Positions 1 through 62,265 of a DNA stretch of 64,000 nucleotides are shown in pieces. The translations under genes and the position numbers were made by a program. Under the pieces are notes generated by a model, which worked only from the letters and a program-made list of their open reading frames with translations, did not search any database and had not been told where the DNA came from. Where the stretch lies: assembly GCA_965223265.1 (NCBI GenBank), contig OZ244999.1, forward strand, positions 1,056,001 through 1,120,000, given 5' to 3'. Each line of letters begins with the position of its first letter. The stretch's first letter is position 1. Origin of the DNA: Planctomycetota bacterium (GTDB lineage: Bacteria > Planctomycetota > UBA8108 > SXIK01).

Positions 1-2991
1 CGGATTCGGGAGCAGTTCGTTGCAACAGTCTCGTGTGGCGCCGAAACACACTGTGCCAGGGGTGAACTCGCCGCACGTTCCCTGGTGGATTTCTGGTGTG
101 AGTTCTAAACCAACACTAAACCGTTCGCCGATGTCCACAGACAACAATTGCTCGGCGCCTGTGACGACAACGCTTTCGATTACTCTAAACGACCGGCCCC
201 ACACTATGTCATTAATGCCATCCAGGACTACATCGCGCCGAATGTCCGATTGACACGGGTCGGCGTCGTCACAGCACTTTTGTTTAAAACCTCCCAGCGC
301 CACCTCTCTCCGATGCTCCATAGAGAAAGGTAATTCTAGCAATCCAAGCCCATGAACCCGTAACCAGGGACCTGCGGCTCTGCTCCAAGGCTCTGTTACT
401 CCGTCCTCACAAGGCGGCCCAGGTTGCCCTTCGCAGCAATCTGGTATCTCTAGATGTCGCCAGCGCCCGTTTAGGCACACGTCTTGGGTGCACTCCTCGT
501 TATCGTCAGCCGCTGGGTCGTCTGGGTCGCACCCTCCACACTGCTCGCCGCCCAGTTGCCCTCCCTGCCCGTCTCCCTCCGGGCCGGAGCAACAATCCCC
601 AGTCACCGCGTACGGCGGGCAATTGCACCCCCAGCCAGAAAGCGTAAGTCCGCTCCCTGGGTCACTTACCATCTTCGAGCCGTCTTCTGTTACGTGCCCA
701 GTGGCCACGATATCGAACTGGCCCGTGTCGTGGTTAAACGAAAGAAAGTATCCCGCGGCGCCAGGCGGAAGAGCTGACATGTTCGGATATTCAATGGCTA
801 CAGGCCTCTCTTGGTCAAAGACCATACCTCCAGGCTGAAACGTCCAGGCAAAAGGCGGTGCAGCGCCGTCTGGCATGGGCATGGGAATGTCGTCGTGGTG
901 CACTTGGCTTAGCGAAAGCTCAACGGGCGTCGCGAGCGGTCGCTCCGGCGTTGGTGTTCGGTTGTCTGCTGGTACCACGCCTTCCTCTACCAAAGACAGA
1001 GGAAACGTGACTGACCCAGCAAGCACTGTCATTTTCAACCCGTCAAGCTCTGGAACAGTAAGCTCCACGGTCTTTGAGCCGTCGTAAAGCACCCTATTTG
1101 CAAAAGGGAGTTTCGGCAGCAGAATTGGAGAAGGAAGCGAGTTGTCGACCCCTTGAGTGAGGACGATTTCGTCGTAGTGAAGTTCAGGGTAATCACAGTC
1201 GCCCCCGCAATCGGCCGTGCGTCCGTCAACGTGAAGCGTAGCAAATCCTGGCCGAATGCTTGAAGGAACGTCTGGGTCAAAGTCTGTGTCAGGAAGTGAG
1301 AATTGCCCAGTTGCGCTTGTAAGGGTACTAAAGGCCTCTTCGCCCGCGGTAAGAGTTACGTGAGCCCCGGCAATCGCGTTTCGAGTGTTGTCAAGGACAA
1401 CGCCAGAAAAACGTGTCGTGGTCTCGTCGTCGCGTGTTGCGGCAAAGACCGTAAACCTCGCTGGTCCCCAGAGGTTCTGCGGAAAGTCAGCAATGACCAC
1501 GTGGTTTCCCGACTCAGGTCCAGGCACAAACGAGACCTCCGCATGTCCTGTTTGACTCGTCCGAACGGTAAAAAACTCTTCGCTGTTTACTTTGCCGCCA
1601 CCCTGTGCGACTGCGAATGTAACTGGCACACCTTCAATACCGTTACACCCATCGTTTATCCATACGCGTAGCGGCTCTGGAAGGGGAGTTTCAGTCGCTC
1701 CGCGCTGACTTCCGCCAGAGCCTATGTTGATTTTCGTTGCTCGACCAGGAAGAGCTGAGGCGCAGAACGAGACACCGCCTTCAACATCTGCGCTAGTCAC
1801 AGAGACACGATTGTTTCCGCAACCTGCATCTGCTCCAAGCCTAAGATAGGCGCTGGCAATTCCATTCTCGTCTGCTCTTGCCTGTAGGGTCATCAGTCCG
1901 TCTTCTCGTAGCACACCTGGCGACAGTGCCAGCCGCGCGTCGCTTCGGGTGACGCGAAACGTGACAAGCTTACGTGCAAAAGGTGAGCCATCTCGTCTAA
2001 GCACGCGAACTACTAACGGTTCTGGAAGCTCCTGGTAGACTGTTCCCTCTTGCGCGTTCCCTGAGACGAGCTCCATCCTGTAGCAATCAGTGCACGGCTC
2101 GACGCGTTGTACGACAATCTGCCTTGCGGCGCTGTTTCCGACAGCGTCGACAGCCTCGACGGTTATCGTATTCTCGCCAAGTTCAAGCGGAATGCCGCTT
2201 CTCTCAAATGTACCGTTCGTCCCGATTCCGACTACGACGTTTGCTGCTACGCCGTCCACCGTAACCGAGAGCCCCATGAATCCACTTAGCACGTCTGACA
2301 CGCGGCCCGCAACCGTGATAGTGGCTGCCGTTACCTCCGCCTGCTCTCCCGGCTCGTCAATGTGGAGACCTGGTGCGGTGGCGTCATGAATCACAGACAG
2401 GGCTCTTGGCGCCGTGCGTCCGTTTTCGGATATCGCTGTAACAAAAAGACGGTTTACGCGGTTCTCGTGTAGGTCAACGGGTGTAGAGAATATGCCGCGC
2501 TCGTCAGCCACCGCTTGCGCAAGAACTCTTCCGCCTTCAACCTCAATCGCCACTCCTGAGTCTGCGGTCCCAGAGAGAAGGATAGAGCTCTCGCTTGTAG
2601 GCGAGCTCACAGCGTCGAGTACCGGAATGCCTGAAGCTGGAACTTGAGGGCATGCGCTAAACTCGTCGCAGCCAAAGGCGTCAGGAGTGGGGTCCTCTCC
2701 GCATTCTTCTGTGCCTGGAAACGGCATTTCCAGCGTCCCAGCAAAAAGGACAATCAACGTGTGCACAGGGTCTGAAATGTCGAGCTCGCCGTCGTCGTTT
2801 GAATCGGAAGCGTCTACGCAGGCAAGGGACATCGGGTCATGTAGGAAGAGAAACCCAAGCGTGTGAACGGGGTCGGAAATGTCAACCGCACCGTCTCCGT
2901 TCGATTCTCCTCGAATGAAGCGCTCTGCTGCGTCGGTCGGACCCGACAGAAACACGACCAACAGTGTGAAACAACCCGCACGTCCTGTCAC
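1..2991 (-). CDS. Large secreted protein, N-terminal signal peptide + dockerin-like (Planctomycete type) domain, Ig-like/Cys-rich regions; runs off left edge
   Basis: Not in the ORF track (no stop inside the window). Manual minus-strand translation from GTG at 2991 after GGAGG: MTGRAGCFTLLVVFLSGPTDAAERFIRGESNGDGAVDISDPVHTLGFLF...DASDSNDDGELDISDP; antisense shadow ORFs at 20, 488, 875, 2090, 2414 and 2879 all share one frame. Frame spot-checked only. Confidence 0.8.
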   Translation of the reverse strand, partial: MTGRAGCFTLLVVFLSGPTDAAERFIRGESNGDGAVDISDPVHTLGFLFLHDPMSLACVDASDSNDDGELDISDPVHTLIVLFAGTLEMPFPGTEECGEDPTPDAFGCDEFSACPQVPASGIPVLDAVSSPTSESSILLSGTADSGVAIEVEGGRVLAQAVADERGIFSTPVDLHENRVNRLFVTAISENGRTAPRALSVIHDATAPGLHIDEPGEQAEVTAATITVAGRVSDVLSGFMGLSVTVDGVAANVVVGIGTNGTFERSGIPLELGENTITVEAVDAVGNSAARQIVVQRVEPCTDCYRMELVSGNAQEGTVYQELPEPLVVRVLRRDGSPFARKLVTFRVTRSDARLALSPGVLREDGLMTLQARADENGIASAYLRLGADAGCGNNRVSVTSADVEGGVSFCASALPGRATKINIGSGGSQRGATETPLPEPLRVWINDGCNGIEGVPVTFAVAQGGGKVNSEEFFTVRTSQTGHAEVSFVPGPESGNHVVIADFPQNLWGPARFTVFAATRDDETTTRFSGVVLDNTRNAIAGAHVTLTAGEEAFSTLTSATGQFSLPDTDFDPDVPSSIRPGFATLHVDGRTADCGGDCDYPELHYDEIVLTQGVDNSLPSPILLPKLPFANRVLYDGSKTVELTVPELDGLKMTVLAGSVTFPLSLVEEGVVPADNRTPTPERPLATPVELSLSQVHHDDIPMPMPDGAAPPFAWTFQPGGMVFDQERPVAIEYPNMSALPPGAAGYFLSFNHDTGQFDIVATGHVTEDGSKMVSDPGSGLTLSGWGCNCPPYAVTGDCCSGPEGDGQGGQLGGEQCGGCDPDDPAADDNEECTQDVCLNGRWRHLEIPDCCEGQPGPPCEDGVTEPWSRAAGPWLRVHGLGLLELPFSMEHRREVALGGFKQKCCDDADPCQSDIRRDVVLDGINDIVWGRSFRVIESVVVTGAEQLLSVDIGERFSVGLELTPEIHQGTCGEFTPGTVCFGATRDCCNELLPNP

Positions 2992-3252
2992 TCTAACCCT
3001 CCTCCAAATCCTCCTTATGCTTTCGGCGTCGTGCTCTGAAGGGACGAACCTCAGAGCCGAATTCTACGATTTGGACGGAGCCGAAAGCAACGCGAAGGCA
3101 GCTACCACGGCCACTCGGACGAATTCTTTGTCATGCTCGTCTTCCCTCTCAGTAGAAACTTCAGCGTCGGTGTCGTGTCGTCGCTCCTCAACTGCTTTGG
3201 CGACTTCGACTTCCGGCTGACCGTAGACGATAACGCCAGGTGTCGCCTTGTG

Positions 3253-53823: not shown

Positions 53824-55184
53824 CCGTCGTGTCCAAAAACCGAAACGGCAAACAAATCCTCGTGTCCCTTTGACTTGCCCGCGGTGGACGTCGACGAATT
53901 ACGATCGAAAACGCGTGCGAACCAGAGTTGAGGGCTGGAAGGAACAGGAGCCCGAACAGCCGCGTTGTCGTCAGCGTCGGTTGCGACGGGTGATGACCGG
54001 AGAGAAAAAAACGCGAGATCTACGCTGCCTCCCGGTAGTAGTACCGAAGCATTCCGCCGAGCCGCTCACGACAGCAAACTTCTCCACTTGTGTCTCCGAC
54101 ACTGTCATCGCGTTCGATCAACTGGTTGCCGAGGCCTCGGTGACAGCGTTTCCGATGGTAATGATCGACAAACGAGCCGATCGCGCGCCTGAGGGATTGC
54201 TCCGTAAAGAAGATCATGCGATCGAGACACTCGCTCTTGATCGAGCGAACGAATCGCTCGGCGTGGGCATTCAAGTTTGACTCCGCACTGGCAGTCGCAC
54301 GATGTTCGTTCCGAAGTCGTCCAGGAACTTCTGAAACTCGGCGGTGTACTTTCCGCCGTGATCGAGGAGCAGGTACCGTTTCCCCAGGAGGAACCCGTCG
54401 AACGAATCGGTCAGGATTCGCGCGATCTGCAGCATGAACCGACTGTCTGGGTTTCGCGTGATGCCTGCGACATGAACCCGCCGCGAGGAGAGCTCTGTGA
54501 AGAAGTGCACGTAGTACGTGATCAAACCCGGGGCCGAGCGACTTCGACCGTGAAGAAGCCGGCGGCGGACAACGTCTCCCAGTGAGCGTTCAAGAATTTG
54601 CGCCATGGGGTTCGCTTACTACGCTCGTGAGAAGGCTCGATTCCGTTCTCCCGGAGGATGTTGGCAATCGTTCCGCGTGAGACCTCGTGGCCGAGATGAG
54701 CCAAAGCACCTCTAATCCTCGTGTATCCCCAGCGAGGATTTTCTCGAGCCATTCGGAGGACCAGGTCCGCGATGTCCGTCTTGATCCGTGGTCGTCCGAT
54801 TCTCTTTCGTCGGGAACTGTAGTCCCATTTCTTAGCGACGAGCTGCCGATACCAGCGCATGATTGTGTCTGGCGTGACGATCGTCGCGACAGCCTCGAGA
54901 ATGTTCCGGCCAAGTGCTTCCCCTTCACGGCAAGCCTTCGGCGTTCGTCATCAGTGAGACGCAGGCGTTTTCCGCGAAGCTGACCCGTGAGGACTCGGTT
55001 TTCCTCAACCAGATAGTCAATGACGTCTTGCTGATGCCGGTTGATCCAGCCGGCGAAGGTGATGACGAGTAATTGCCAAGGGTGAAACGCGTTCACTCAC
55101 ACGATGATAATCGAGCGCGCACCAAGCGTACAATTGACGGGGTGGACATGGGTCATGAAACGTTCGAGTTTTTGGACAGGACGG
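53824..55184 (-). mobile_element. Degenerate IS with integrase-core (rve) transposase, frameshifted (CDS pieces 54020-55096)
   Basis: MNAFHPWQLL...[10 protein letters not shown]...NAHAERFVRSIKSECL...RERLGGMLRYY; inverted ends TGTCCAAAAAC at 53830 and GTTTTTGGACA ending 55178. Confidence 0.8.
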
Positions 55185-55260: not shown

Positions 55261-56752
55261 TCAGCTCAGCCAGTCGGACGCCGACACGGTACCGGCGGTC
55301 TTCTCTGGAAAAACGACATAGCGTTCGGTCCCCAGTGCGAACTCGACGTCGCCGCGAAGCAGTGCGGCGGTCACGTCGGGTTCGTCTGCGATATCTGAGA
55401 CCTCGGTTACCGTTCCGGTTTCCCAGAACAGACGTCTCAAGAAGTCTGCGGTGGATTCGCCTTGCTCGCGCTCAAATCTCTGCGCCTGGTCGTCACGCAC
55501 GACTACGGCGTCTGCCCGCGCGGCCGCGTGAAACAACGCGAGCTCATACATCGACATCCGCACGCCACTGTCGAAGTAGGCAATCACTTCTGGGCAGATC
55601 TTCTGAATGGCCTTGGTGGAGGTCTCGACGTTATTCAAGGCAGGCATGCCCTTGGAATAGAGGTCCAGCCAGTGGAGCTTCTCATCGACGAGGTCGAACA
55701 CGACCGGAACATAGATTCCTCTTTCGCCTTGCAGGCTGAACTTCATCTCAACGGTTCGGGCGTCGAAGTGCTTTCCGTCGGTATCTTCGCGCACCATGTA
55801 GCCGGCAAATGCCCGGTCGAGCTGGCTAAAAGCCAGACCAGCGTAAGCGTTGACCACCATAACGGCATATCGGACGTCGCTCTCGAGTATCGCGTTGCAG
55901 TCGATATCTACGAACTCACTTGAACCATCAGGATAAGGAGCACTCGTGAGATCACCCGCGCTCCTGGCCAGCGTCTTGCCGTCGACCTGGCACTGGAGCT
56001 CGTAATATGAGCACACGCCGCGATACGCCCAGTTGCTGTCGTAAAAACCGACCGAGAGATCGATATCGGTGTCGGCGACGTTCCGGTTTGGCTCGCACCA
56101 GTGCAGGAATAGACGGATAAACTTCCCAGCCTGCGCTGGTGCTTCGATCGTTGAGCCGCGTGGCAGGGCGATGGCGCTCGGACTGGCCGTTCTTTCGTTA
56201 AACGGCACCATGATCTTCTTTAGGGAACGGTCCAAGAGCCACGTCGACGACCTTGGAAGCGTTCCGAAGCGGACGAGAAGCGCCATCTCTATCGATTCCG
56301 TGACTCGCCGAACGGTGTCGCTGTCGATCGTCGAGCGTTGGTCCGGCGCCGAAATGCCGCCAGCAGTACCACCCTTCGGCCAGTAGATCCGAACCGGCAC
56401 AGGCTTGGTGCGAGAGAGGAAGTGGTTCCGTAGCGTCACGAGCATCGGCGTGGGCAGCTGATTCACGATGGAGGTGAACGCTGCGACGGTATCGTCGATG
56501 ATCTCGGGGCGTCCACGAGCGACTCGCAGCAGGTGGTCAAGCCGTCTCGCCAGTTCGCCCGGTCGCTCATGCAACATCCGAATTGCCCCGACGACATTCC
56601 TCGCTGCAAGTGCTGCTTCCACTCTTCCATGGAACGACTGGAATGCCGCAGCCTTCTCGCCGCTTGGCGACTTCTTGCGAACCACTGCGAAGGCTCGCGC
56701 GAGCTTGGGATAGCGAGAGGCGTACTCGTGCGGGTGAAGAAGCTCTCCGACC
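55261..56752 (-). pseudogene. C-terminal part of prokaryotic RING/TerD-domain protein (MXAN_6230/SCO0854-like), split by transposon
   Basis: ELLHPHEY...RPGELARRLDHLLR...RLFLHW...DIDLS...GDLTSAP...EFVDID. Confidence 0.8.
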
Positions 56753-56993
56753 TGCTGAGTCCCACAAACTCTGGCTCGTGAGCAGCGACGAGTCTCAGAT
56801 TCACTGACCCGGAAACGCCCCGGCATACCCCGCCGAACCGACCGTCCGATCATACCCCGCCTACCCCGCGCCCCCCGTTCGACGCTGCGCCCTGGACCTT
56901 CGCTCGACTCCTCGCCTCACCTCGAGTAAAGAGGGGAGCGGAGAGACCGGTGTTGGTGCACTTCTCTCCGCAAGTCCCCGTACGGAGAGAGCG

Positions 56994-57662
56994 ATGCTAC
57001 CCCATTTGGTCAACGCGATACAGAGCTATGGCGAAGCTGTTCGCCGCCGTGAGATCCAGCCGACCTGTAACCGCTGCCCGAATTGCAGCGGGGAGCCAGA
57101 TCGGTTCCGCTACCGCGGTCACCGAGAGCGCGTGTTCCTCGTTATCGTCAGGCGTCTGGTCGAACCTGTCCTGTCGCTTCTGAGTCGCTGGAAGTGTCCT
57201 CTGTGTAAGCGCTCCTTCACGCTCTACCCGCCCTTCGCGCTGCCGGGGAAACGCTACGTTCGCGACTGCGTTTTCGATCACGCTCGGCGCTACCTCCAGA
57301 TCGACGAGCTTTCGTATCGCGAAGCCGTCAAGGTCGAACACATGCCCGTCTTCCACGAGGGTGACGACAGGGGAGCGATCGACGAGCGCAGCCTCGCGCA
57401 CTCAACACTTCATCGTTGGCTTTCGTTCTTTCGCTCTCTCAACGCCACGCTCCTGGAGGCTCTCCGCCTCATCCGAGAGCGCTCGGCGAGGTCCGACATC
57501 TTCCGCAAGGTCTTCGCCGTCCGTCCAGCCAAGTACCGAAGCGAATCACGGCGGGACACTCTCGTCGCGGCACTTCGAGCTCTCTCGATCGACCAGGTGT
57601 TCCGTTCCCTCTTCGGCCGATCGATCTTCCCCGACTTGGCAACCTCCGCAGCCTGGGCGTGA
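56994..57662 (+). CDS. Zn-finger/HTH accessory protein (DUF6431-like)
   Basis: CPNC...WKCPLCKRSFTLYPPFALPGKRY...HSTLHRW. Confidence 0.7.
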   Translation: MLPHLVNAIQSYGEAVRRREIQPTCNRCPNCSGEPDRFRYRGHRERVFLVIVRRLVEPVLSLLSRWKCPLCKRSFTLYPPFALPGKRYVRDCVFDHARRYLQIDELSYREAVKVEHMPVFHEGDDRGAIDERSLAHSTLHRWLSFFRSLNATLLEALRLIRERSARSDIFRKVFAVRPAKYRSESRRDTLVAALRALSIDQVFRSLFGRSIFPDLATSAAWA

Positions 57663-57702
57663 GCGAGAATCACGCCTCGCTCGCCCCATGCGAGGTGTGA
57701 TC

Positions 57703-59265
57703 ATGAAAGCGAAAGATCTCGATTGGGCTATCTTCTGGGCGGCTCTTCTCCAGCCCGTCGTCATCGGCGAGGTGCCGGAGGAGGAAGCCGCGCGATTTCT
57801 CCGCGAGCTCGCCAAAGAAGAGCGCATCTTTCCCGACGGATCGCGACGCAAGCCGGCTCTTTCGACCCTGAGGCGGAAGCTTCGCATCTATCGCGAGGAG
57901 GGCTTCGAGGGTCTTGCCCGCAGGCCGCGAAGCGATCGCGGGAAACCGCGTGCCCACGGCAAAGAGCTCGTCGAGAAAGCCGTCGAGCTGAAGCGTGATC
58001 AGCCACTGCGCTCCCACTTCGCCATCAACAAGTTCCTCCAGGCTCAGCACGGAAAGACCATTCCGCGTTCGACCCTCTTCCGCTACCTCAAGATCGCCGG
58101 CGCGACGCGGCTGAAGCTCGGTGTCGAGAGGAGGAAAGTCCGGAAACGCTGGACTCGTGACTCCACCCATGCCCTCTGGGTCGGCGACTTCGCCGATGGA
58201 CCCTACGTGCTGCACGACGGCGAAGTCGTCCCCACCTTCCTCTGTGTTCTCATCGACTGCTACAGCCGCTCGCTCGTCGAGGGGCGCTACTACCTTCGGC
58301 AAAATCTCGAGGTCTTGATCGACTGCTTGCTGCGGGCGTGGGCCAAGCACGGCGCTTCGGACGAGCTCTATGTCGATCAGGCGAAGGTCTATATCTCCAA
58401 AGCGCTCAAGGCGGCATGCCTTGCCGTTGTCACCCGGCTCATCCATCGCGGCAAGGGCGATCCGCCACCGGGTGGTCTCGTCGAACGACTCATCGAGACG
58501 ATACAGGGCCAGTTCGAGGCCGAGGTCAGAGCCGGCGAGATCCTCACTCTCGACTCGCTCAACGGAAGCTTCGATTCCTGGAAGACCGTGGCCTACCACC
58601 GCCAGGTCAACACCGAGACCGGCGAAACACCCGAGGCACGAGCCGAGGCCGGCCTCAAACGGCCTATCCGACACGTCGACATTCAGCGCGTCACCGAGTT
58701 CTTCATGTGCCGCGAGACGCGGCGCGTTCACCCGGACTTCTCCGACGTCCAGCTCGATCGCCGCTTCTATCGCGTCGACAAGAGTCTGCGCGGTGACAAG
58801 GTCGAAGTCCGCTACGATCCCTTCTCCGCGCCCGACACGGTTCTCATCTACTCCAGCAACGAAGAGTACCTCGGAAAGGGCGTCCTTCACGAGCGCGAAG
58901 AGGGCGAGGACGCCGGTGCTCCCGCCCCTCCCGCCAAAGCGAAGCACAACTATCTGGAGCTTCTTCGCCGTGAGCACGACGAGGAGCTCAAGAAGCGCGC
59001 CCAGGGGATCGACTACCGTCGTGTCATCGCCTCTCGCCAGTGGCCCTTCACCGACTTCGCATGCCTTCTCGGCCGGCTCATGGGGCGCAAGGGCGCCCTC
59101 TCGAGCTTCACCGCCGAGGAGCTCGAGGAACTCAAGAAGTTCTACAACCGTACTCCCAGCCTCACCGAAGTCCTCTTGCTGAGGGCCTTCGAGAAGGCTC
59201 CGGAGAAATCCATTCCCTACATCGCCTACGAGCTTCAACGACTCGCAGGCAGAAAGGAGGACTGA
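57703..59265 (+). CDS. DDE transposase (Mu/rve type)
   Basis: HTH + PRSDRG, LWVGDF, IDCYSR, LYVDQ, VERLIE, VEVRYDP. Confidence 0.9.
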   Translation: MKAKDLDWAIFWAALLQPVVIGEVPEEEAARFLRELAKEERIFPDGSRRKPALSTLRRKLRIYREEGFEGLARRPRSDRGKPRAHGKELVEKAVELKRDQPLRSHFAINKFLQAQHGKTIPRSTLFRYLKIAGATRLKLGVERRKVRKRWTRDSTHALWVGDFADGPYVLHDGEVVPTFLCVLIDCYSRSLVEGRYYLRQNLEVLIDCLLRAWAKHGASDELYVDQAKVYISKALKAACLAVVTRLIHRGKGDPPPGGLVERLIETIQGQFEAEVRAGEILTLDSLNGSFDSWKTVAYHRQVNTETGETPEARAEAGLKRPIRHVDIQRVTEFFMCRETRRVHPDFSDVQLDRRFYRVDKSLRGDKVEVRYDPFSAPDTVLIYSSNEEYLGKGVLHEREEGEDAGAPAPPAKAKHNYLELLRREHDEELKKRAQGIDYRRVIASRQWPFTDFACLLGRLMGRKGALSSFTAEELEELKKFYNRTPSLTEVLLLRAFEKAPEKSIPYIAYELQRLAGRKED

Positions 59266-60056
59266 TGTTCACCACCCATTTCAAGATGACGACGCAGCCC
59301 TTTCTCGAGCGCGCGCCCGTCGAGCAGATTCTTTCCGACGAGCGCATCACCCAGGGACTCGCTCGACTGGAGTACCTCGCCAAGTCGGGCTCGATCGGCC
59401 TGGTGACCGGACTCACCGGGGTGGGGAAGTCGTCTCTGGTGAAGCTCTTCGTGCGCTCGCTGAGCCGCAACCTCTACGACCCGATCTATCTCTCGCTGAC
59501 CTACGTCGGGGCAAACGGCATTCTGAAGCTCCTGGTTTCCAGCCTCGGCGAGCAGCCCCGCCGTGGCAAGGAGCGGCTCTTCCTCCAGATCCTGGATCGC
59601 GTCGGGGCGAACGAGCACACGACAATCCTCGTCATCGATGAAGCGCACCTGCTTCCTTCGGAGTCGCTCACCGATCTGAGACTTCTGGTCAGCTCCGGAC
59701 TCGAGGACGGCCCGCCATTGAAGATCCTCCTCAGCGGACAAGAGACCCTGAGAAAGGAGCTTACCCGAGCGCGCCACGCCGATCTCACGCATCGGCTCAG
59801 CGTGCGCTACCACGTGCCGCCGCTCAGCAAGGAGCAGACGGTCGAGTACATCGACTTTCAGATGCGCGCAGCCGGCGCCTCGCAGAAAGTCTTCGAGCCT
59901 GAAGCGAAGTCGCTCATCCACGACTACTCAAGCGGCGTGCCGCGGCGCATCAACAACATCGCCACCGCCTGCCTCATTCAGGCCGCGAGCAAGAACGTCC
60001 AGAAGATCTCCGAGGCGCTCGTCAACGACACCGCCCCCGAGTTCCATCTGCCCTGA
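59265..60056 (+). CDS. ExeA/TnsC-like AAA ATPase
   Basis: TGLTGVGKS, VIDEAH, LSGQ, GVPRRINN. Confidence 0.9.
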   Translation: MFTTHFKMTTQPFLERAPVEQILSDERITQGLARLEYLAKSGSIGLVTGLTGVGKSSLVKLFVRSLSRNLYDPIYLSLTYVGANGILKLLVSSLGEQPRRGKERLFLQILDRVGANEHTTILVIDEAHLLPSESLTDLRLLVSSGLEDGPPLKILLSGQETLRKELTRARHADLTHRLSVRYHVPPLSKEQTVEYIDFQMRAAGASQKVFEPEAKSLIHDYSSGVPRRINNIATACLIQAASKNVQKISEALVNDTAPEFHLP

Positions 60057-60075
60057 GAACGGAGACTGACGCGCC

Positions 60076-60369
60076 ATGTTCCACAAGACCCTGATGCCTC
60101 GAGTCAACGACTTCGCCGAGTATCCTGAGCTCGCCGTTTTGATGACCCTCGCGACGAACCTCGAGATCGCCCTGTTCGCTCTGAACGCCGCGTACCCCGA
60201 TCTCGACTTCGACTACACGCAACGCTCCTCCTACACCGAGCAAGACGCCTATCTCGCCGCCTTGGGCGCTCAGCTGCGAGCGCTCCAGATCGTCCTCGAA
60301 GAGTATCTCGAGAGCCTGCAACGAATCCGATATTTGAAGGCGCCGAGCGGTGGAGGTGGCGTCGCATGA
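60076..60369 (+). CDS. Transposon-encoded hypothetical helical protein
   Basis: GGAG RBS; PELAVL motif. Confidence 0.7.
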   Translation: MFHKTLMPRVNDFAEYPELAVLMTLATNLEIALFALNAAYPDLDFDYTQRSSYTEQDAYLAALGAQLRALQIVLEEYLESLQRIRYLKAPSGGGGVA

Positions 60370-60683
60370 CAGGACGATTCTCCGGCAAGCTCCTGCGGTC
60401 GTTGAGAAACGATATACCGATCGCGTGGCTCCTCGATCTGCTCGGCGTCCCCGCGAAAATCTCCGAGGGCTACGTGCGCTTCCTCTGTCCGCGGTGTCGC
60501 GAATTCAACACCGCGACGAAGGCGTCCACCAACCTCGCGCGTTGCTTTCGCTGCGAGACGAACTTCAACCCGATCGACCTGGTCATGATCGTCAAGCGGC
60601 TGAATTTCGTCGACGCCGTCGAGTTCCTCGCCGAGCTCCGCGATCGTCGCGGTGACGCTCGCGCCACGCCTCGCCCTTCGTGA
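60366..60683 (+). CDS. CHC2-type zinc-finger protein
   Basis: FLCPRC...NLARCFRCETNFNPIDLVM..LNFVDAV. Confidence 0.8.
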   Translation: MTGRFSGKLLRSLRNDIPIAWLLDLLGVPAKISEGYVRFLCPRCREFNTATKASTNLARCFRCETNFNPIDLVMIVKRLNFVDAVEFLAELRDRRGDARATPRPS

Positions 60684-60817
60684 TTCCCCGGGTCGTCGTG
60701 CCGTCCGGGACACGACGACCCGCGCCTTCTCGCCTCGCAAATCGCATCTCGCACCCGCGAATCAGCACCATGCCATTTAATCTGGGATTTCCGCGCCAGA
60801 TACTGTGGGACTTAGCA

Positions 60818-61923
60818 CCGACCCACACCCAGTACGGGCGATAACGGAGCATATCCTCAATCAGCGTGTCGCCGTCAAAACTTTCGAGAAGAGAAAAAAG
60901 CGCTCGCCGGAGTGGCCGCCCTACGCGCGCGAGTTTGAACCGACGTACCTTGAGTGGCACCTGGGCGCGGTGGTAGGAGCGACTCACGGGTTGTCCCAGG
61001 AGCTTGGCGATCGGTCCCGACCAACGAGATCGTTCTTCGACGACCATGTCTCTGATGATCGTCTCGCCCTGCAAACCGGGATCCGCATCCGAGTAGGCCG
61101 CGAGTACCCGCAAAACGTCGGTGGCCGTTTTGAGATACGACCTGGCTACTTCGAGCACCGTCCCCGGAGAATAGATTTGAAACAGCGTGCCCACGACGAT
61201 CGCTACATTCTCCTTGACGGAGATCGTCTCCGGAAGCCAATCGAGAAGTTCGTTGGACCAATCTTTCACCAAAACCTGCAAGTGAGCGCGATCATCGGGA
61301 GGCATGGCCTGGCTGCGAACGCAGAAACTCAGGAAGAGGTCTCGGCTGGCTTCCTGCACGTCTTCCCCGAGGTCTAGTACCTTGAATCGCACATTCTCTG
61401 CAGGCAGGCCGCGTTCGACGGAAGGTTTGAAGAAAGGCGACGACTGGTCGACCTGTCGGTTGCATATGGGGCACGCCGAGTAGTTCTCGCCGTCGTAGCA
61501 ATGGTCACAAACGATATGCTCGCATGGATTGAGTACGTGCGTCGTTCCAACTCGTCGACAGTGAACGCACTCTTGGTCGCGTCGCTGGAAAAAGTATGTG
61601 AGCACCCTTCGGATCCACAACTCATGCGTATCCTCAGGAATAGCGTGCGGAAAGTGTCGAAAGAGCGGCTGGTGCTTTCGGTTTGCGCCAAGAGAGGACG
61701 CAATCGCGTCACATGCCCAGCGTTTGAAGTCGGCGGCACCTTCCGCGGGCAGCGTCTCCAGCCGCGCACGCAGACGAGTCGAAAGGACGTACCCGAACTC
61801 GGCGAGTTCGAGCTCCAGGGCGTCTACGATGAAAGGACCTACTCGGGCTTGACCGGTTGGAGGGAAGAGCAACCGGCTTCTCTGGAGCAAGACTGCTTCG
61901 CTTGCCTGCCTTGAAGTACTCAC
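60818..61923 (-). pseudogene. N-terminal part of RING/TerD-domain protein
   Basis: PLFRHFP, CVHC...NPCEHIVCDHC...ACPIC RING; joins in frame with the 55261-56752 part as WVWVGELL. Confidence 0.85.
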
Positions 61924-61939
61924 CGTGCCCTCATAGGTC

Positions 61940-61983
61940 AAAAACGATTGCGGATCGGAACCGATCGTTGTTCCGACCCGCAA
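61940..61983 (-). terminator. Terminator-like hairpin in the 5' leader of the RING/TerD gene
   Basis: TTGCGGGTCGGAAC-loop-GTTCCGATCCGCAA-TCGTTTTT on the minus strand. Confidence 0.6.
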
Positions 61984-61988
61984 TGAGC

Positions 61989-62058
61989 ATCCATGAAGGT
62001 AATCGTCCACGCTGTTTCGAAGATTTAGAAGGAAGCCTGGACTCAGCCTTCACTGGAT
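61989..62058 (-). ncRNA. Candidate structured cis-regulatory leader RNA
   Basis: Nested stems UGAAGG/CCUUCA, GUCCA/UGGAC, GCU/AGC around loop UCCUUCUAAAUCUUCGAAAC. Confidence 0.5.
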
Positions 62059-62114
62059 ACTTTAACACGACTTTGAATGAGCTTCGCAACTTTCTGTCGT
62101 GAATCGTTGATTGA

Positions 62115-62265
62115 CTAGTCTGTGTCGCCGCGTGATTTGTACCAGCGCAGGTAGTCGACGAACTTGCTGGCGACAGGCTTCAACCTGTCCCGTTCGAGAG
62201 CTTCGAATTGACCAAACTCTACGTCGAGGACGTGTCGAGTGTTCTTGTCGTACAGAATCATCCCT
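62115..62265 (-). pseudogene. Fragment resembling an SMI1/KNR4 C-terminus
   Basis: QGMILYDKNTRHVLDVEFGQFEALERDRLKPVASKFVDYLRW. Confidence 0.35.

Follow-up and report, generated by a model that had tools for sequence, protein, structure and literature searches.

The question raised by this locus is whether the structured leader of a bacterial RING-finger gene acts as a riboswitch, as another kind of cis-acting element, or as an RNA that works together with the protein encoded next to it. The leader lies on the minus strand of a 64,000-nt stretch of the genome of a Planctomycetota bacterium (contig OZ244999.1, positions 1,056,001 to 1,120,000), the whole of which is referred to below as the window.

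A structured RNA precedes a RING gene interrupted by a transposon

The region comprises the following features, given in the direction of the leader.

62084..62089, minus strand: -35-like hexamer TTGCGA, read from the sequence, 19 nt upstream of the -10
62067..62059, minus strand: extended -10-like TGTTAAAGT, with the hexamer TAAAGT at 62064..62059 and TG ahead of it
62051..61995, minus strand: conserved RNA motif of 57 nt, defined by covariance model (CM) R1 and by covariation
62051..62047 with 61999..61995, minus strand: P1 of the motif, GAAGG with CCTTC
62046-62043 and 62004-62000, minus strand: internal loop of the motif, CUGA / GAUUA
62042..62035 with 62012..62005, minus strand: P2 of the motif, GUCCAGGC with GCGUGGAC, one G.G mismatch
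62034-62013, minus strand: terminal loop of the motif, which opens with the invariant UUCCUUCU (the loop of the window begins UUCCUUCUAAAU)
between the 57-nt hairpin and the second hairpin, minus strand: spacer of 10 nt
61984..61947, minus strand: second hairpin, 15 perfect pairs, 8-nt loop, core GCGGG...AUCCGC
61944..61940, minus strand: UUUUU, preceded by CG, in the tail of the second hairpin; 16 nt separate the U run from the GTG
61932..61928, minus strand: SD-like GAGGG of the RING gene
61923..61921, minus strand: GTG start codon of the RING gene, at which the N-termini of 78 homologs align
60818..61923, minus strand: N-terminal 369 codons of the RING gene (Prok-RING_4 and first part of a predicted Ro60-like ring)
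56753..60817, plus strand: Mu/Tn552-like transposon of 4065 bp, with terminal inverted repeats and a 5-bp target duplication
about 55261..56745, minus strand: C-terminal 494 codons of the RING gene (rest of the predicted ring, vWA-like domain with a TerD insert)

The preliminary description had recognized an extended -10, a nested stem with a CUGA/GAUUA internal loop, and a hairpin with a U run ending about 16 nt before the GTG. The -10 was found where TG and TAAAGT occupy 62067..62059, the nested stem with the described loop at 62051..61995, and the end of the U run at 61940, ahead of the start codon at 61923. The second hairpin and its U run also stood, with 15 pairs counted instead of 14. 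This hairpin was found independently by a terminator scan, and its sequence predicts an intrinsic terminator, with a GC-rich stem (8 of the 15 pairs are G-C) followed by the tail CGTTTTTGAC. The comparison of the internal loop to a kink-turn seemed unlikely to hold: judged by eye, the conserved bases (CU-N-A / G-A/C-U-U/C-N) misfit the canonical GA/AG arrangement, the GA of the 5' strand of a canonical kink-turn falling at a variable position.

Given the location of the -10-like TGTTAAAGT, transcription would be expected to start around 62052, at the base of P1. A strict sigma-70 promoter scan, with a spacer of 16-18 nt, called no promoter within the window. The minimum free energy (MFE) of a 161-nt stretch was -64.1 kcal/mol compared to -42.8 ± 4.2 kcal/mol for 200 dinucleotide shuffles (z of -5.07), and none of the shuffles equalled it. 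A 152-nt stretch was unique in the 9.18-Mb genome, and CM R1 matched the whole genome at the window copy only (66.2 bits, E of 7e-14), thus ruling out a repeat or a REP-like element. Despite the G.G mismatch in P2, this score is within the normal range for the model.

Upstream from the RNA, a 48-codon open reading frame (window 62115-62261, minus strand; stop at 62112) ends 61 nt before the motif and has no Pfam match. It is separated by a 470-nt gap from a divergent gene for a formaldehyde-activating enzyme (Pfam Fae), which forms the other flank of the RNA region on the plus strand.

The open reading frame starting at 61923 encodes a Prok-RING_4 finger (Pfam, E of 1.3e-18). The gene belongs to NCBIfam family NF041916 (RING_SCO0854), named 'MXAN_6230/SCO0854 family RING domain-containing protein'. 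The N-terminal piece scored 357.9 bits (profile positions 2-330) and the C-terminal piece 497.9 bits (profile positions 331-835). Each is below the cut-off of 600 bits because the gene is split; a homolog that is 84% identical, P0003, scored 882 bits. On sequence grounds, the split gene can therefore be assigned to NF041916, which, with the TerD fold predicted for the C-terminal part of its product, bears out its initial identification as an MXAN_6230/SCO0854 RING/TerD gene. Full-length relatives are about 860 residues long, and the databases contain at least 450 members. With this query, the gene was absent from 60 relatives of the same phylum.

Codon 369 is the last one ahead of the transposon, which parts the gene precisely at the boundary of profile positions 330 and 331; base 60817 is both the last base of this codon and the last base of the transposon. 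As judged by Pfam matches, the element encodes a transposase with rve and Mu-transpos_C domains, an ATPase (AAA_22), a small Zn-ribbon protein (CHC2), and a DUF6431 protein. Ten full-length, near-identical copies (~100%) are present in the genome, so that the element looks recently active, and read depth over the transposon is about 10-fold that of the flanks. One 780-nt contig of sequencing run X2 (depth of 4.8) joins the flanks (56746/60818) without the transposon, its short side being 24 letters long. This is a weak hint of an uninterrupted allele of the RING gene in the sample of that run. Downstream from the C-terminal piece, overlapping open reading frames on the minus strand (window 54271-55096) have translations resembling fragments of IS transposases.

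The RNA is conserved in at least six phyla and its helices covary

We analyzed 80 loci encoding relatives of the RING protein in Myxococcota, Planctomycetota, Oxalobacteraceae, Acidobacteriota, Streptomyces, Verrucomicrobiota, and Obscuribacterales. Short motifs were counted in the 75 loci for which 150 nt or more of upstream sequence was available. The motif CTTCCTTC was present on the coding strand upstream of 72 of the 75 homologs, in at least six phyla, and its reverse complement upstream of one; for CTTCCTTCTA, the corresponding counts were 36 and 0. The presence of a similar motif upstream of homologs in other phyla, suggested at the outset, is thereby substantiated.

A MAFFT alignment of 69 distinct instances contained 19 invariant columns. 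The consensus consists of P1 (G-R-A-G-G / C-C-U-Y-C), an asymmetric internal loop, a P2 of 8 bp, and a loop of the form UUCCUUCU...AGC. Cells of paired columns could pair in 94.7% of the cases; the figure fell to 80.5% when columns were shuffled and to 41-53% when partners were slid. Double changes were found in 10 of the 15 pairs. P2 was 98.9% paired, with covariation at 6 of its 8 pairs, and its many G.U pairs point to conservation of a structure formed by RNA rather than DNA. RNAalifold yielded the identical fold. In a CM-fitted set of 93 instances, 97.1% of the cells were paired, in an alignment that is biased towards the model. Thus, examination of the upstream regions of homologs, proposed as a check of the original observation, revealed both conservation and strong covariation of the two helices. 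About 90 distinct instances of the RNA were collected from Myxococcota, Planctomycetota, Oxalobacteraceae, Acidobacteriota, Actinomycetota, Verrucomicrobiota, and Obscuribacterales.

The leader had not been assigned to a known family, and Rfam led to the same outcome. In the window, Rfam 15 at E ≤ 10 returned only mir-2329 (E of 0.12, on the second hairpin) and P37 (E of 5.2), both of which are chance matches. At gathering score, 20 homolog loci gave tRNAs only and 8 rsr loci gave tRNAs or nothing. Full-text literature searches turned up no account of the motif or of the gene family other than mentions in lists of domains. The RNA defines a new family of structured RNAs.

Two ideas on the internal contacts of the RNA were considered. 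Pairing of the loop CUUCC with the purine strand of P1, or a pyrimidine triplex between them, was dropped because the loop is invariant while P1 varies (GAAGG, GGAGG, GCAGG, GAGGG, and other 5-mers). The 3' side, GAUUNCCUYC, resembles the 3' end of 16S rRNA, so that P1 might mimic an SD:anti-SD duplex; this idea was weakened by P1 sequences that are not SD-like in the 3' copies and in the 5' copies of Streptomyces.

The RNA accompanies a single protein family independently from its position

CM matches were obtained in 76 of the 80 homolog loci, upstream from the gene in 74 and in arrays downstream from it in two. Among the four loci without a match, three lacked upstream sequence (L060, L070, and L078) and one (L088) contained a diverged copy recognized by eye. 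In each of six genomes, the strong CM matches adjoined a gene of the family. Among 101 Streptomycetaceae genomes, 33 contained the RNA and 35 encoded the protein family at E ≤ 1e-20; the protein was encoded by all 33 RNA-positive genomes, and the RNA was found in none of the 66 protein-negative genomes.

The position of the RNA varied. In 17 of 30 Streptomycetaceae RNA loci, it was located 5' of a full-length RING gene. In the remaining 13, it was located 3' of a RING-less paralog that retained profile positions ~174-760. Each of these 13 RNAs was closely preceded by a TAnnnT box and followed by a terminator hairpin. In the only paralog locus that was read fully (L130, G065:C5:579500-585000), the RNA begins 15 nt past the stop codon. 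It is followed there by a convergent gene whose translation resembles, by eye, the C-terminus of an NAD-dependent DNA ligase. In two Obscuribacterales metagenome-assembled genomes (L067 and L072), the RNA was absent upstream from the gene, and arrays began 18 nt past the stop codon. They comprised 10 diverged copies at 3195-4641 of L067 and 6 at 5499-6249 of L072, with compensatory changes between copies. A search of the whole genomes detected 13 copies in the array and one elsewhere for L067, and 6 copies for L072. The arrays have repeating spacers of about 200 nt. Part of the L067 array is a near-exact duplication of 497 nt, which may be an effect of assembly.

Three tandem pairs of the RNA were found upstream from RING genes (L077, L082, and L084). 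Of 17 pattern matches in viral contigs, 3 passed the CM, and exactly those 3 were accompanied by a homolog. The three contigs concerned, classed as viral in IMG/VR, are 460 kb (L161), 230 kb (L165), and 242 kb (L154) in length. Two RNAs lie 3' of a RING-less homolog in L161 and L165, the Pfam analysis having been run on L161. No conserved neighbor other than the gene of the protein family was present in 16 loci, in 13 of which the nearest downstream open reading frame found was convergent. These results indicate that the RNA is found beside one family of bacterial RING-finger proteins only, independently from its position relative to the gene.

Promoter-like boxes, the second hairpin, and the distance to the start codon

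Among 72 instances with upstream sequence, 51 have a TANNNT box whose start lies 10-18 nt ahead of P1, compared to 1-7 instances for other 9-nt bins. Homologous loci often contain TTGACN at 17 nt from the -10-like box. In tandem pairs, each copy has its own -10-like box, accompanied by a TTGACA -35 in L084 and found as -10-like boxes only in L077. Both copies of L077 also have their own hairpin and U run.

The sequence between P1 and the start codon was classified for 72 loci. A clear hairpin with a U run was present in 18 (median distance of 69.5 nt), a U run straight after P1 in 19, and neither in 35 (median distance of 22-25 nt). An SD-like sequence near the start codon was detected in only 29 of the 72 loci. 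In many loci, the RNA lies 2-25 nt from the start codon without a terminator or an SD-like sequence. Where the RNA abuts the start codon in this way, it forms a genuine mRNA leader, and regulation in cis cannot be told apart from a role as a partner.

The second hairpin has conserved features of its own. The core GCGG[AG]..[CU]CCGC was found in 17 of 34 distinct long tails, against 1.45 (maximum of 4) in shuffles, and a looser pattern in 29 of the 34, against 9.4. Since the hairpin of the window contains this recurrent core, it is probably part of the RNA, more than a generic terminator. In one locus (L049, ~2930-3000), about 8 tandem repeats of a 9-nt unit, GACCCGTAG, follow the second hairpin and precede the start codon of the RING gene.

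The protein is predicted to contain a Ro60-like ring

The two pieces of the gene product were folded separately (pLDDT of 81 for the N-half and of 86 for the C-half). Foldseek returned nothing for the N-half at E ≤ 0.001. A Foldseek-independent search gave the following matches, listed with the two values returned and the range.

N-half residues 192-369: D. radiodurans Rsr 2nvo_A; 6.9; 125; 36-186
N-half residues 192-369: Thermus phage Ro60 9l5y_B; 6.5; 128; 25-175
C-half: Thermus phage Ro60 9l5y_B; 10.2; 210; 214-466
C-half: D. radiodurans Rsr 2nvo_A; 8.9; 243; 184-521
C-half: Xenopus Ro 1yvp_A; 7.6; 207; 231-525

According to these matches, the two halves map onto consecutive parts of Ro60. 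The architecture suggested by the models consists of a RING finger, a Ro60-like helical ring, and a vWA-like domain into which a TerD domain is inserted. At the sequence level, Pfam detected no TROVE domain in the protein at E ≤ 1, a profile search of the PDB returned RING fingers only, and hhalign gave a probability of 0.2% for the family against 8 Streptomyces Rsr proteins, both alignments being shallow (Neff of ~2.1-2.5). For the ring region, the best score in the ESM Atlas was 0.89, to unnamed clusters, and was uninformative. No endoribonuclease fold was detected in the structure searches of both halves, and PADLOC assigned three homologs to 0 families.

Comparison with Ro60 and its Y RNAs

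Bacterial Y RNA genes have been described on the same strand as rsr and within 4 kb of it, several per locus being possible, and the YrlA gene of Mycobacterium smegmatis is located 5' of rsr (Chen et al., 2014; PMC4201824). The RNA described here resembles them (Yrn1/Yrn2 and YrlA/YrlB) in being encoded on the same strand beside the protein gene, 5' or 3' and often in multiple copies. It also resembles Y RNAs in its closing stem, formed by the 5' and 3' ends, and in a pyrimidine-rich loop, which some Y RNA hairpins have. According to the same article, Ro60 contacts the 5' strand of the stem made by the two ends of the RNA; this strand reads GGCUNAG in the new family, which differs from the motif GNCGAAN0-1G of YrlA (PMC4201824). 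On the protein side, the model superposes colinearly on the ring and the vWA domain of Ro60. Unlike Ro60, the protein has no TROVE signal at the sequence level, and its N-terminal RING finger and TerD insert are absent from Ro60. Unlike Y RNAs, the RNA has no tRNA-like domain and no match to the Y RNAs of Rfam. The CM found no match at 12 canonical Streptomyces rsr loci (best score of 14 bits), and canonical TROVE genes were present at separate loci in 53 of the 101 Streptomycetaceae genomes; both systems thus coexist, at separate loci, in Streptomyces genomes. The lack of sequence support, the absence of CM matches at rsr, and the location of TROVE genes elsewhere indicate that this system is separate from Rsr and that the RNA is not one of its Y RNAs.

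Structured RNAs associated with phoH2 are likewise located 5' or 3' of their gene (legend to Figure S14 of bioRxiv 10.64898/2026.10.21.760802). That system, as far as the legend describes it, shares with ours lineage-specific structured RNAs on either side of a protein gene; the protein and the RNA differ. The main text of that preprint mentions neither RING as a domain, nor TerD, nor names beginning with Myxococc-, the word 'ring' referring there to the rings of figures.

Alternative explanations for the leader

The arrangement in the window recalls a small-molecule or ion riboswitch with a terminator as its expression platform. The hairpin is compact and conserved at the 5' end of an mRNA in at least six phyla, has invariant bases in its terminal and internal loops, and forms a 5'-UTR domain that covaries and is matched by the CM upstream of the gene in 74 of 80 loci; of 72 loci, 18 have a terminator-like hairpin next and 19 a U run behind P1, and the association is with a single gene family. 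Orphan riboswitch candidates such as the yjdF and nadA motifs are comparable, as compact conserved 5'-UTR structures linked almost exclusively to a single gene family, with terminators in some cases. Unlike these candidates, the RNA is also found 3' of its gene and in arrays, has a promoter-like box for each copy, tandem copies included, and displays no evident antiterminator. The 3' copies, which comprise 13 of the 30 Streptomycetaceae loci, the two 3' arrays, and the pairs of the viral contigs, are difficult to reconcile with a switch acting on the gene that follows. Moreover, among 35 distinct long leaders, MFE folding left the second hairpin independent from the motif, with no cross pairs, in 27, and produced motif-tail cross pairs in 8; the conserved core of the second hairpin is also unlike a generic terminator. 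We consider a riboswitch to be quite unlikely. Of the aptamer and terminator layout of the preliminary description, what stands is a conserved, structured RNA that opens the transcript of the RING/TerD gene and precedes a terminator-like hairpin; its interpretation as a riboswitch is poorly supported, in view of the 3' copies, the arrays, the separate promoter-like boxes, and the independent folding.

The RNA could alternatively be a purely cis-acting operator or stability element, bound in the UTR of its own mRNA by the RING protein or by another factor, with no separate ribonucleoprotein. This possibility is unlikely but retains some weight, as no clear terminator lies between the RNA and the start codon in 54 of 72 loci (median of 22-25 nt), SD-like sequences near the start codon are often absent, and the 5' strand of P1 is SD-like (GAAGG/GGAGG) in 68 of 69 aligned instances compared to 4 of the 29 listed 3' copies. 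Arrays of 6-13 copies and 3' units comprising a promoter and a terminator are hard to fit as operators, as are tandem 5' copies that each have their own promoter and terminator. In type III toxin-antitoxin systems, such as ToxIN, a promoter, a structured RNA, a terminator, and a protein gene follow each other, and the ratio of RNA to protein is set by read-through. The long-form loci share this layout, and arrays of the RNA do exist, as would be expected from an RNA antitoxin or inhibitor neutralizing the protein. We nevertheless regard such a function as highly improbable: PADLOC was blank for the three homologs, neither an endoribonuclease fold nor, more specifically, a ToxN-like fold was found, most loci have a single copy, and the array copies are diverged and not near-identical repeats. 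Finally, the 48-codon open reading frame ends at 62112 on the same strand, so that the structures might merely be the intrinsic terminator of that upstream gene and a chance hairpin. The likelihood of this is practically negligible, since that frame has no family match, both the motif and the second hairpin are found again ahead of homologs whose neighbors are unrelated, and the conservation of CTTCCTTC, the covariation, and the CM matches in 76 of 80 loci contradict it.

A proposed dedicated partner RNA for a RING and Ro60-like protein

The exclusive linkage to one RING family, together with the Ro60-like fold predicted for its members, makes a partner RNA more probable than a metabolite-sensing switch. 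By analogy with Ro60, we on balance favor the reading that the RNA is a dedicated, Y-RNA-like partner of a RING-Ro60-like-TerD protein; in the 5' arrangement, the best reading is that it also provides the leader by way of which transcription reaches the gene.

In the model set out here, we infer the ends of the transcript, the physical binding of the RNA, and any feedback. The RNA module of the window, of about 115 nt, would be transcribed from its own promoter, probably starting at the base of P1, and would probably end, at least in part, at the second hairpin and its U run. As proposed from the mode of binding of Y RNAs, the protein would recognize the conserved stem and internal loop (GGCU-N-AG / CG-A-UU-N-CC), and the invariant pyrimidine loop UUCCUUCU would be left free to contact something else. 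With the 5' arrangement of the window, the gene would be reached only by read-through or by transcription passing the RNA, and the efficiency of the terminator, and possibly binding of the protein, would consequently set the ratio of RNA to protein.

A more tentative extension, which we consider possible and would not yet expect to prove correct, is that many phyla and some giant viral contigs contain an undescribed two-part module, in which a protein with a RING finger, a Ro60-type ring, and a TerD domain is associated with a Y-like RNA whose UUCCUUCU loop recruits or senses a further partner. If so, the module would be an RNA-gated or RNA-guided RING ligase, and an instance, in prokaryotes, of a RING domain of the E3 type and a Ro60-type ring combined in one particle. 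The RNA provides a first functional handle on a large uncharacterized family named by locus tags, namely that its members probably act together with a particular RNA or upon it. Confirmation of the Ro60-like fold would add to the Ro/Y-type ribonucleoproteins a branch equipped with a RING finger of the ubiquitin-ligase type.
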